Of a stretch of DNA of 64,000 bases, positions 17,676 through 20,921 are shown piece after piece. The position numbers were made by a program, and so were the translations under genes. The stretch is from assembly GCF_041886205.1 (NCBI RefSeq), contig NZ_CP169029.1; one strand, 5' to 3'. The notes under the pieces were generated by a model. The model saw nothing but the letters and a program-made list of their open reading frames with translations. It had not been told where the DNA came from and ran no database searches. The number at the start of each line of letters is the position of its first letter. The first letter of the stretch is position 1. This DNA is from Escherichia coli (lineage in GTDB: Bacteria > Pseudomonadota > Gammaproteobacteria > Enterobacterales > Enterobacteriaceae).

Positions 17676-18785
17676 ATGAACGAACAATCCCAGGCCAAAT
17701 CACCAGAAGCCTTGCGCGCAATGGTCGCCGGGACACTGGCCAATTTTCAGCACCCAACCCTGAAGCATAACCTCACCACGCTGAAAGCGTTGCACCATGT
17801 CGCCTGGATGGACGACACGTTGCATGTGGAACTGGTTATGCCATTCGTCTGGCATAGCGCGTTTGAAGAGTTAAAAGAGCAATGTAGCGCCGAACTGCTG
17901 CGTATCACCGGGGCGAAAGCTATCGACTGGAAACTGTCGCACAATATCGCCACCTTAAAACGCGTGAAGAATCAGCCGGGTATTAATGGCGTGAAGAACA
18001 TCATTGCGGTCAGTTCCGGTAAAGGCGGCGTGGGTAAATCCTCCACGGCGGTAAACCTGGCGCTGGCACTGGCGGCGGAAGGGGCGAAAGTCGGCATTCT
18101 GGACGCCGATATCTACGGCCCATCAATTCCCACCATGCTGGGCGCAGAAAATCAGCGTCCAACTTCGCCGGACGGTACCCATATGGCACCGATTATGTCT
18201 CATGGCCTGGCAACCAATTCAATTGGTTATCTGGTCACTGACGACAATGCGATGGTGTGGCGTGGACCGATGGCGAGCAAGGCGTTAATGCAGATGTTGC
18301 AGGAAACCTTGTGGCCGGATCTGGACTATCTGGTACTCGACATGCCGCCAGGAACCGGTGACATTCAGCTGACGCTGGCGCAGAACATTCCGGTGACTGG
18401 TGCGGTAGTGGTCACCACCCCGCAGGACATCGCGCTGATCGATGCGAAAAAAGGCATTGTGATGTTCGAGAAAGTCGAAGTTCCGGTGCTCGGTATTGTC
18501 GAGAACATGAGTGTGCATATTTGCAGTAACTGTGGTCACCATGAACCGATTTTCGGTACCGGTGGTGCAGAGAAACTGGCTGAAAAATACCACACACAGC
18601 TGCTGGGGCAGATGCCGTTACACATCTCCTTACGTGAGGATCTCGATAAAGGCACGCCAACGGTTATCAGCCGTCCGGAGAGCGAATTTACCGCTATCTA
18701 TCGCCAGCTGGCTGACCGCGTTGCAGCTCAGCTCTACTGGCAGGGTGAAGTCATTCCCGGCGAGATTTCCTTCCGCGCGGTCTAA
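17676..18785 (+). CDS. apbC: Fe-S cluster carrier ATPase Mrp/ApbC
   Basis: Start MNEQSQAKSPEAL; P-loop SSGKGGVGKSS; CxxC motif (CSNCGHH). Confidence 0.95.
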   Translation: MNEQSQAKSPEALRAMVAGTLANFQHPTLKHNLTTLKALHHVAWMDDTLHVELVMPFVWHSAFEELKEQCSAELLRITGAKAIDWKLSHNIATLKRVKNQPGINGVKNIIAVSSGKGGVGKSSTAVNLALALAAEGAKVGILDADIYGPSIPTMLGAENQRPTSPDGTHMAPIMSHGLATNSIGYLVTDDNAMVWRGPMASKALMQMLQETLWPDLDYLVLDMPPGTGDIQLTLAQNIPVTGAVVVTTPQDIALIDAKKGIVMFEKVEVPVLGIVENMSVHICSNCGHHEPIFGTGGAEKLAEKYHTQLLGQMPLHISLREDLDKGTPTVISRPESEFTAIYRQLADRVAAQLYWQGEVIPGEISFRAV

Positions 18786-18814
18786 CGCCTATTAACCATT
18801 CTGGTTATTTTTCA

Positions 18815-18856
18815 TACACCGCAGAGATGTTACATTGATGCGGTGTATTTGTTTTT
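18815..18856 (+). terminator. Rho-independent terminator after apbC
   Basis: Hairpin acaccgca...tgcggtgt followed by tttgttttt. Confidence 0.55.
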
Positions 18857-19047
18857 GCCGCATTAATGAACACTTATTTAATACTGCGAATATTCTGCGG
18901 ACCTTCGTCCGAAACTCTACAAAGTCGATTGATCGTACAGGCAATGCTTCATTATCATCCTTCGTGGCTGTGTAGTGGATGTACAGCTATAGTTTGTTAT
19001 GCACTCATTCTATCCAGGCATAACCTTTACTACAGGGATAACGTTCA

Positions 19048-19329
19048 ATGAATAAGTATTGGCTGTCAGGAATTATTTTTCTTGCCTATGGATTGGCTTC
19101 TCCCGCATTCTCTTCACAGACTGCCACATTATCGATTAATGGCAGGATCAGTCCCCTAACATGCAGTATGACTATGGTTAATAGTCAACCTCAACAGCAT
19201 TGTGGTCAGTTAACGTATAATGTCGATACCCGTCATCAGGTTTCTTCGCCCGTCAAAGGTGTAAAGACAGAAGTGGTTGTTGCAGGTAGTGATAGCAAAC
19301 GTCGAATCGTGTTAAATCGATACGATTAA
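19048..19329 (+). CDS. yehE: YehE, small secreted protein (93 aa)
   Basis: ORF with a signal-peptide-like N-terminus, positioned before yehD. Confidence 0.8.
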   Translation: MNKYWLSGIIFLAYGLASPAFSSQTATLSINGRISPLTCSMTMVNSQPQQHCGQLTYNVDTRHQVSSPVKGVKTEVVVAGSDSKRRIVLNRYD

Positions 19330-19360
19330 TTTGGCAACCTGATTTTAATTGCATTTAGAA

Positions 19361-19399
19361 AGCCGAAATCATTTATATAAATGATTTCGGCTTTTTTTA
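19361..19399 (+). terminator. Rho-independent terminator after yehE
   Basis: Palindrome agccgaaatcatttatataaatgatttcggc followed by ttttttt. Confidence 0.7.
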
Positions 19400-19622
19400 T
19401 TGATATCAATAATACCATTTACATAAATCTACATTAATTAATAGATGCGATAAATATTTAATACTCTTAAGTATTTGTTGTATTTATATTGCATTGGTTA
19501 ATTTGTTTTAAATCAATAAAACAATATGTTTACATTGCGGCAACTTTTTTGATGTGAGAAATTTGTTTCCAAGAGATACAGACTCTTAACAACCAAAAAT
19601 AAATTTTATTAAGGAACATATT

Positions 19623-20165
19623 ATGAAACGTTCAATTATTGCTGCCGCTGTCTTTTCTTCTTTTTTTATGAGCGCTGGAGTATTTGCTGCAGACGTTGAT
19701 ACCGGAACATTAACCATTAAAGGAAATATTGCAGAATCTCCGTGTAAATTCGAAGCGGGTGGTGATTCAGTAAGTATTAATATGCCGACTGTACCAACCA
19801 CTGTCTTTGAAGGTAAAGCTAAATATTCTACCTATGATGATGCAGTCGGTGTAACCAGCAGCATGTTAAAAATTAGCTGCCCGAAAGAAGTTGCTGGTGT
19901 AAAACTCTCGTTGATTACCAACGATAAAATAACTGGTAACGATAAGGCGATAGCCAGTAGCAACGATACCGTGGGGTACTATCTCTATTTAGGTGATAAC
20001 AGCGATATCCTGGATATTTCTGCACCTTTTAACATTGAGAGTTATAAAACAGCGGAAGGTCAATATGCTATTCCGTTTAAAGCAAAATACCTGAAACTGA
20101 CAGATAACTCAGTGCAATCAGGTGATGTGTTATCTTCTCTGGTTATGCGTGTGGCGCAGGATTAA
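19623..20165 (+). CDS. yehD: Fimbrial major subunit (chaperone-usher pathway)
   Basis: 180-aa ORF with signal peptide and fimbrin-like composition; first gene of the yehDCBA order. Confidence 0.9.
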   Translation: MKRSIIAAAVFSSFFMSAGVFAADVDTGTLTIKGNIAESPCKFEAGGDSVSINMPTVPTTVFEGKAKYSTYDDAVGVTSSMLKISCPKEVAGVKLSLITNDKITGNDKAIASSNDTVGYYLYLGDNSDILDISAPFNIESYKTAEGQYAIPFKAKYLKLTDNSVQSGDVLSSLVMRVAQD

Positions 20166-20246
20166 TAAATAAAAATTGCAAGTTTCTCCAGGTAATAAAC
20201 ATGGCCGCTATCCCCATGGCGGCTTTTTAATTTAAGAGGCATTAAG

Positions 20247-20921
20247 ATGAAAGGATTATTATCTTTACTCATTTTTTCTATGGTCCTTCCTGCGCATGCC
20301 GGAATTGTTATCTACGGGACGCGCATTATTTACCCGGCAGAAAATAAAGAAGTGATGGTGCAGTTGATGAACCAGGGAAACCGTTCTTCGCTGCTGCAGG
20401 CGTGGATTGATGATGGCGATACGTCGTTACCACCAGAAAAAATTCAGGTTCCTTTCATGTTAACGCCACCAGTGGCAAAAATAGGGGCAAATTCCGGGCA
20501 GCAAGTAAAAATCAAAATTATGCCGAATAAACTGCCCACTAATAAAGAAAGCATTTTTTATCTGAATGTTCTGGATATTCCACCAAATAGTCCAGAACAA
20601 GAAGGTAAGAATGCACTGAAGTTTGCGATGCAAAACAAAATCAAATTGTTTTACCGGCCGGCGGGTATTGCTCCGGTAAATAAAGCGACCTTTAAAAAGT
20701 TACTGGTAAATCGCAGTGGCAATGGATTGGTGATAAAAAATGACTCAGCTAATTGGGTGACGATTTCGGATGTCAAAGCTAATAATGTCAAAGTCAATTA
20801 TGAAACTATTATGATTGCCCCCTTAGAAAGTCAGAGTGTTAATGTCAGAAGTAATAATGCAAATAACTGGTATCTGACCATTATCGATGACCACGGTAAC
20901 TATATTAGTGACAAAATTTAA
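20247..20921 (+). CDS. yehC: Periplasmic fimbrial chaperone (PapD-like)
   Basis: Signal peptide followed by a chaperone-like N-terminal region (GIVIYGTRIIYPAENKEVMVQLMNQG). Confidence 0.9.
   Translation: MKGLLSLLIFSMVLPAHAGIVIYGTRIIYPAENKEVMVQLMNQGNRSSLLQAWIDDGDTSLPPEKIQVPFMLTPPVAKIGANSGQQVKIKIMPNKLPTNKESIFYLNVLDIPPNSPEQEGKNALKFAMQNKIKLFYRPAGIAPVNKATFKKLLVNRSGNGLVIKNDSANWVTISDVKANNVKVNYETIMIAPLESQSVNVRSNNANNWYLTIIDDHGNYISDKI

Follow-up and report, generated by a model that had tools for sequence, protein, structure and literature searches.

The 293-bp spacer between yehE and yehD in this Escherichia coli chromosome is best read as a composite of two parts with ordinary functions, a terminator belonging to yehE followed by a separate control region for the yehDCBA fimbrial operon, and we put the probability of this reading at about 80%. 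The region is a textbook example of how a cryptic fimbrial operon is controlled from AT-rich DNA coated by H-NS; the key facts are in print for K-12, and the region in itself matters little. What is added here is evidence of covariation in the hairpin downstream of yehE, a conserved block located at the ArcA site, and an argument against anti-termination, points that could guide the building of reporters with which to wake the yeh operon. The present analysis supplied the base composition, the energetics of the hairpin, the covariation of its stem, the conservation profile and the placing of published sites on the window; H-NS occupancy, the ArcA peak with its boxes, the derepression seen in an arcA mutant and the effects of SlyA and BolA have been demonstrated by others in K-12. 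All of the regulatory data thus stem from K-12 rather than from the present strain, to which the K-12 results would be expected to carry over.

Locus and gene order

The window, by which is meant the whole 64-kb stretch of DNA analysed, was identified as E. coli chromosome through a genome search in which a 701-bp query around the spacer found matches in 5411 of 5426 complete E. coli genomes, with NZ_AP027790.1 being 100% identical. The gene order, taken from the RefSeq annotation of NZ_AP027790.1 and of a K-12-like genome, is metG (minus strand), apbC, yehE, yehD, yehC, yehB, and yehA. yehE (19048-19329, plus strand) encodes a small secreted DUF2574 protein recognized from its open reading frame, from the RefSeq annotation of identical DNA and from a match to Pfam PF10836 (E 1e-48), and its TAA stop codon occupies 19327-19329. 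yehD (19623-20165, plus strand), the first gene of yehDCBA, encodes the major fimbrial subunit, as indicated by its open reading frame, annotation and a match to Pfam Fimbrial PF00419. The intergenic region of about 290 bp described in the initial annotation corresponds exactly, on open reading frames and RefSeq annotation, to the 293-bp spacer at 19330-19622 between these two plus-strand genes, and is 97-98% identical to its K-12 counterpart. Further downstream are yehC (20247-20921, plus strand), which encodes the periplasmic chaperone (Pfam PapD_N and PapD_C, in agreement with the annotation), and the usher gene yehB (20937-24194, plus strand), the 5′ part of which matches Pfam Usher and PapC_N and which is split by an IS1 at 22942-23709.

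A possible origin of YehE as the remnant of a fimbrial subunit N-terminus was considered when residues 1-44 of YehD matched DUF2574 (E 8e-4, under the gathering score). BLASTP of YehE against YehD was non-significant (E 2.4), and the idea was dropped as a weak lead.

Base composition and H-NS silencing

With a GC content of 23.5%, against 50.7% for the whole window, the spacer is the lowest-GC 293-bp stretch in the 64 kb (percentile 0.05%) and the sole place where a 293-bp window falls below 30% GC; the yeh genes themselves are at 39-42%. TpA steps account for 12% of the spacer and 4.7% of the window, a 2.5-fold enrichment, and homopolymer runs occur at 19392-19398 (T7), 19545-19550 (T6), and 19595-19599 (A5), so that the extreme AT-richness and poly-A/T runs noted initially are borne out. 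The spacer has the extended AT-rich DNA, far under genome GC, by which H-NS-silenced regions are recognized, and H-NS binding would follow from this AT-richness. The H-NS motif TCGATAAATT is matched twice with 2 mismatches, at 19436 (minus strand) and 19447 (plus strand), both within 19399-19472.

The proposal that this is an H-NS-silenced cryptic chaperone-usher operon is supported and was already known, since both H-NS binding and silencing have been published for K-12 (PMC3661553; PMC5797941; bioRxiv 10.1101/2024.06.20.599902). Panyukov and Ozoline (2013) listed 78 promoter islands in K-12, AT-rich stretches occupied by RNA polymerase and H-NS from which almost no full-length RNA is made, and these include entry 2190229_357, assigned to yehD(-)/yehE(-) (PMC3661553, Table 1). 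The H-NS ChIP data that the initial annotation pointed to as a check therefore exist for the K-12 ortholog, which is marked as H-NS-bound, with code K, from the Kahramanoglou and Oshima data sets (PMC3661553), and yehDCBA is likewise entered in the H-NS regulon as "K, O" on the basis of two ChIP studies (PMC5797941, Table 2). When the ArcA site is used as an anchor, the K-12 island maps to positions 19282-19638 of the window, approximately the whole spacer; the K-12 ortholog of the spacer is thus itself a listed island, with no substantive difference between the two. A strict hexamer scan of 18700-19800 found 3 promoter-like sites where 3.8 were expected from shuffles and hence no promoter-site excess, but the published islands were defined with PlatProm and this result reflects a failure of the proxy only.

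In K-12, yehDCBA was described as H-NS-repressed by Korea et al. (2010), as cited in PMC5797941, and its expression rose 3.6-fold on SlyA overproduction, an effect read as antagonism of H-NS (PMC5797941). In an IPOD-HR study, yehEDCBA was found within a static silenced protein-occupancy domain (bioRxiv 10.1101/2024.06.20.599902), and overproduction of BolA raises yehD and yehC (PMC4337573). Among the cryptic K-12 chaperone-usher operons sfm, yad, elf/ycb, and yeh (Korea et al., 2010, cited through PMC5797941 and PMC3559732), the present locus is yeh itself. It has the AT-rich upstream region, the poor expression and the increase brought about by overproduced SlyA or BolA, and it differs from K-12 yeh in that the usher gene is additionally broken by IS1 in the present strain.

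A predicted terminator downstream of yehE

The spacer contains a perfect 36-bp palindrome with 18-nt arms at 19359-19376 and 19377-19394. The effective hairpin consists of a 16-bp stem (19359-19374 paired with 19379-19394) and a 4-nt loop (19375-19378), with the T7 run at 19392-19398; its folding energy is -22.9 kcal/mol (z = -6.5), none of 200 shuffles folded as well, and a consensus scan scored it as terminator-like. The stem starts 29 nt past the yehE stop codon, at a co-oriented gene end, and the T-tract is present on the yehE sense strand only, the opposite strand offering merely TTTCTAAAT. A T-tract of 6-7 T is retained in 16 of 16 Escherichia sequences. Together, the palindrome, folding energy, terminator scan and covariation (below) identify 19359-19398 on the plus strand as a predicted intrinsic (Rho-independent) terminator of yehE. 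A near-perfect palindromic terminator at 19361-19399 had been reported in the initial annotation; the palindrome is real but perfect rather than near-perfect, and its 5′ end had been placed 2 nt off, the description being otherwise right.

Covariation was assessed in 16 Escherichia sequences of the spacer, representing E. coli phylogroup variants, O157, two cryptic lineages, E. albertii and E. whittamii, which yielded 11 distinct hairpins. The stem variants include GCCG/CGGC, GCTG/CAGC, GCTT/AAGC, GCCA/TGGC, and GCCT/AGGC, with GGA/TCC in E. albertii; G-U intermediates are found in ESDR8, MS20645, and SCPM, and the 4-nt loop varies freely across Escherichia alleles. Across the 11 alleles, 97.7% of stem cells are paired and two-sided changes occur at 4 stem pairs (11 cells). 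None of 500 shuffles matched the observed percentage of paired cells, the number of cells with two-sided changes or the covariation score, and 8 of 500 matched the count of 4 pairs with two-sided changes, while in controls with a slid 3′ partner pairing fell to 28-53%. These figures draw on no more than 11 sequences, all related, one of which supplied the structure itself. This new evidence of covariation indicates, at the level of sequence comparison, that the yehE hairpin has been under selection as an RNA structure.

A perfect 36-bp palindrome situated amid the binding of regulators and nucleoid proteins might instead act at the level of DNA, as an operator bound by a dimeric regulator or as a cruciform or other structural site, and not as an RNA terminator. 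We consider this highly improbable. The presence of several different Watson-Crick pairs at one position, reached via G-U intermediates, together with a freely varying loop, is a signature of RNA pairing and not of a fixed half-site, and thus disfavours a DNA operator; the restriction of the T-tract to the yehE sense strand and the start of the hairpin 29 nt past a stop codon also stand against it. The terminator reading agrees with what is known of E. coli intrinsic terminators, which the hairpin resembles in having a sense-strand T7 straight after it, in lying 29 nt past a stop codon and in its compensatory stem changes. Unlike that of the most efficient terminators, the yehE stem is unusually long (16-18 bp) and AT-rich, with 5 G-C pairs. 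The hairpin at 19359-19398 would then be the element at which the yehE transcript ends. Neither yehE nor yehD has an entry in the Term-seq supplements of PMC7815308, which were consulted for an experimental yehE 3′ end, and an Rfam scan at a permissive E-value returned only sub-threshold microRNA-like matches to the bare hairpin, none near the gathering score.

The terminator is absent in the other genera examined (Citrobacter and Superficieibacter). Just after the Citrobacter yehE homolog (locus L019, 2740-2773) there is an 11-12-bp hairpin whose sequence is unlike that of the Escherichia hairpin, with a folding energy of about -21 kcal/mol when an 86-nt segment is folded (z -3.2) and with no T-tract on either strand. 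Termination at the 3′ end of yehE is not universal, given that the Citrobacter hairpin lacks a T-tract. The palindrome had also been considered as a dispersed repeat, after searches of E. coli genomes returned "2 places per genome"; this was rejected, as the second place is the self-match of the 36-bp palindrome to its opposite strand.

A conserved control block upstream of yehD

A conservation profile from apbC to yehC, expressed as mean pairwise identity among 11 Escherichia alleles, divides the remainder of the spacer into two segments. The first, at 19399-19472, has a mean pairwise identity of 66.4%, the lowest of all segments, and by this profile is unconstrained AT-rich filler. The second, at 19473-19622 on the plus strand, stands at 90.8% and is designated here the conserved yehDCBA control block, containing a probable promoter, operator sites and the 5′ UTR. 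For comparison, the identity is 84.0% in the yehE coding sequence, 84.4% in the hairpin and T-tract, 86.4% in the yehD coding sequence, and 71.6% in the yehD-yehC spacer, and within the block positions 19503-19592 reach 93-97%, as against 84-86% in the yehE and yehD coding sequences. The new finding, as judged from these comparisons, is that constraint varies along the spacer, and that one block, at the position of the ArcA site, exceeds both adjacent genes in conservation and is recognizable in other genera as well.

The core of the block is common to Escherichia, Citrobacter and Superficieibacter and comprises TTTAAATCAA(T/C)AAAACA, T(T/C)ACATTG, CTTAACAA and an AAGGAA ribosome-binding site. 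The Shine-Dalgarno sequence AAGGA (19611-19615, plus strand) lies 7 nt before the yehD ATG and is invariant in the aligned sequences of the three genera. A strict scan for sigma-70 consensus found no plus-strand promoter in the spacer. The best candidate core promoter, at 19507-19536 on the plus strand (TTTAAA, an 18-nt spacer and TACATT, with 8 of 12 consensus matches), came from a loosened scan which yields only 8-of-12 candidates; Citrobacter retains the two hexamers at the same spacing, as does Superficieibacter with CACATT as the second hexamer, and the ArcA boxes extend over the candidate. Both the ArcA operator and the conservation profile argue for a yehD promoter downstream of the hairpin. 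Its exact position, and that of the transcription start site, are placed here from sequence features and should be taken as provisional; for K-12 yehD, "no TSS" has been stated (PMC3798270).

The predicted 5′ UTR, folded as 19540-19640, does no better than shuffles (z -0.17), and the constraint on the block is therefore probably exerted at the level of DNA, through a promoter and protein-binding sites. The alternative that the block is conserved as a structured 5′ UTR, a small RNA or a leader peptide could draw on its conservation above that of the flanking coding sequence and on an inverted repeat, AAGAG-N7-CTCTT (19571-19587), which recurs with a different loop in Citrobacter. However, the fold is at shuffle level, there is no Rfam match to the block, and the changes found in E. 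coli E69 in the AAGAG/CTCTT repeat break the pairing rather than compensate for it. A mini-ORF at 19527 opens with ATG here and GTG in K-12, but it lacks a Shine-Dalgarno sequence and its start codon is lost in E. albertii, and the center of the block is already explained by the published ArcA operator. An RNA or leader-peptide role for the block is accordingly quite unlikely; RNA structure was rejected as its explanation on the z of -0.17, and the mini-ORF was rejected for the missing start codon in E. albertii and Shine-Dalgarno sequence. The repeat itself, AAGAG-ATACAGA-CTCTT, is situated about 35 nt upstream of the yehD start, has a 6-nt loop in Citrobacter and is roughly kept in Superficieibacter.

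Among the conserved motifs left unexplained by ArcA are TTATATTGCA at 19484-19493 and AAGAG-N7-CTCTTAACAA at 19571-19592. It is conceivable, though we would wager against it, that the core of about 120 bp (approximately 19473-19592) holds, besides the ArcA boxes, a putative site for a dedicated activator or an unusual promoter. If true, this would amount to a physiological switch capable of waking the cryptic Yeh fimbriae.

The ArcA operator

The center of the conserved block is occupied by a published site for phosphorylated ArcA. The direct-repeat operator given for K-12 at 2190321-2190363 of U00096.2 (PMC3798270) corresponds, as its reverse complement, to 19504-19546 of the window with 1 mismatch, and falls in the most conserved part of the spacer; the center of the K-12 ChIP peak maps to 19568. 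Phased direct repeats with an 11-bp period that match the ArcA box are thus present under the position of the K-12 ChIP peak, as expected of an operator for phosphorylated ArcA. In K-12, an ArcA ChIP-seq peak was observed upstream of yehD in one of two replicates, the ArcA box had a modest score of 12.3 bits, and yehDCBA was up 5.4-fold in an arcA mutant (PMC3798270). YehD was also among the ArcA targets in an independent genomic SELEX study (PMC6134199). Promoter occlusion has been proposed as a general mechanism of ArcA (PMC3798270), and the location of the ArcA boxes over the candidate promoter fits with it. Compared with promoters repressed by phosphorylated ArcA (Park et al., 2013; PMC3798270), the site is alike in having phased direct repeats, which here lie in the most conserved part of the spacer, but differs in that the yehD peak was found in one of two replicates only, the score is 12.3 bits and there is no TSS relative to which the boxes could be placed (PMC3798270).

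Termination or anti-termination

The initial annotation had regarded the whole spacer as a long leader and as a likely site of regulated anti-termination. In such an arrangement yehD would owe its transcription chiefly to read-through, from a promoter located before the hairpin, and the hairpin would serve as a regulated attenuator that an anti-termination factor overrides. The hairpin does lie between two co-oriented genes. Elongation factors, RfaH among them, can be needed for the expression of H-NS-silenced operons, which lends this model some general plausibility. The operon has, moreover, been written as yehEDCBA in one preprint (bioRxiv 10.1101/2024.06.20.599902).

Several lines of evidence nevertheless make read-through a very unlikely route to yehD. 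The ops element GGCGGTAGnnTG has no match with 2 or fewer mismatches on the plus strand between 18790 and 19940. When 19230-19420 (191 nt) was folded in a search for an alternative antiterminator, the entire hairpin persisted in both the minimum free energy and the centroid structure, and nothing competed with its pairing. Conservation is highest downstream of the hairpin, where the ArcA operator also lies, as would be expected if the promoter were there. In Superficieibacter, the core of the block persists upstream of yehD even though the DUF2574 gene is divergent from yehD, and in Citrobacter the T-tract is missing. The locus is therefore similar to systems with RfaH/ops anti-termination, or with terminator/antiterminator attenuators, only in having a terminator hairpin upstream of a silenced operon, and is unlike them in having no ops element, no alternative fold and a terminator that precedes the conserved block. 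Regulated anti-termination thus finds no footing here. Neither does the notion of a long leader, with the hairpin placed 29 nt past the stop of yehE and ahead of the conserved block that bears the ArcA operator; from this same arrangement, the hairpin most likely belongs to yehE rather than being an attenuator of yehD.

Proposed regulation of yehDCBA

The composite reading, a yehE terminator followed by an independent control region, suggests the following course of events. The Rho-independent terminator at 19359-19398 would end the yehE transcript and so insulate yehD from transcription of apbC and yehE. RNA polymerase would, most likely, initiate within the conserved block of about 150 bp; if the candidate promoter at 19507-19536 is used, the TSS would be near 19543 and the 5′ UTR about 80 nt long. 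Under anaerobic conditions, phosphorylated ArcA bound to the phased repeats at 19504-19546, across the candidate promoter, would repress the operon, and H-NS would coat the whole AT-rich interval and keep the yeh operon cryptic. In K-12, overproduced SlyA or BolA raises the amount of yeh transcript, the SlyA effect being read as antagonism of H-NS by the authors of the SlyA study (PMC5797941).

Other genera and ancestry of the locus

A contig scan based on YehE recovered Escherichia only (6 loci), as did a YehE protein search, and other genera were reached via YehD homologs. Citrobacter has the synteny metG-apbC-DUF2574-yehD-yehC-yehB, the same as in E. coli. In Superficieibacter, the divergent orientation of the DUF2574 gene leaves yehD with no co-oriented upstream gene; this opposite-strand, yehE-like gene (locus L021, 2246-2518) has 61% GC, compared with 42% for E. 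coli yehE. Yeh has been described as a core, ancestral fimbrial locus that occupies the same position in Salmonella, as Stc, and in Citrobacter (Wurpel et al.; PMC3559732), and the K-12 promoter island has been flagged as overlapping predicted genomic islands (PMC3661553). The initial annotation had spoken of xenogeneic silencing. A xenogeneic origin of the locus is doubtful, in view of its ancestral status and the position it shares with Citrobacter.

Within Escherichia, O157, a cryptic lineage, E. whittamii, and E. albertii carry a common diverged yehE/yehD allele, with 74-81% identity to window positions 19048-20921. The O157 apbC protein has the same accession as that of K-12-like strains, implying a sharp boundary of recombination or divergence near yehE. 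Conservation in Escherichia is 92-99% at 18965-19054, from the 3′ portion of the apbC-yehE spacer into the beginning of yehE, far above the rest of yehE. Positions 18929-18958 carry a promoter-like site, TTGATC-18-TATCAT, and positions 18964-18990 a weak hairpin of terminator-like form.

Disruption of yehB and insertion sequences

The usher gene yehB is interrupted by a 768-bp IS1 at 22942-23709, with break points established by comparison with a K-12-like genome. The element is flanked by a 9-bp target duplication, GTCTTTCCG, at 22933-22941 and 23710-23718, and its InsB transposase ORF (22957-23460, minus strand) matches PF03400. With yehB split by IS1, the yeh operon is predicted to be non-functional and unable to assemble fimbriae in the present strain, whatever its regulation. 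Further downstream, megablast against the K-12-like genome left most of yehA, the tip adhesin gene, unmatched (24185-25155), although the flanks are 97-99% identical; on this comparison yehA is evidently a divergent adhesin allele.

In NZ_AP027790.1, which is 100% identical over the spacer, the usher gene is annotated as a pseudogene by PGAP, and a 1.35-kb part of the window is missing (22908-24256, comprising the IS1 and flanking yehB and yehA). Its arrangement looks like an IS1-associated deletion derivative of that in the window. In NZ_CP067245.1, an IS3-family element replaces the DNA right after the equivalent of window position 19045 (locus L004, 1547 onward), and NZ_CP019280.1 carries an IS1A within the yehE-yehD area. 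The yeh locus seems to be a recurrent target of insertion sequences.
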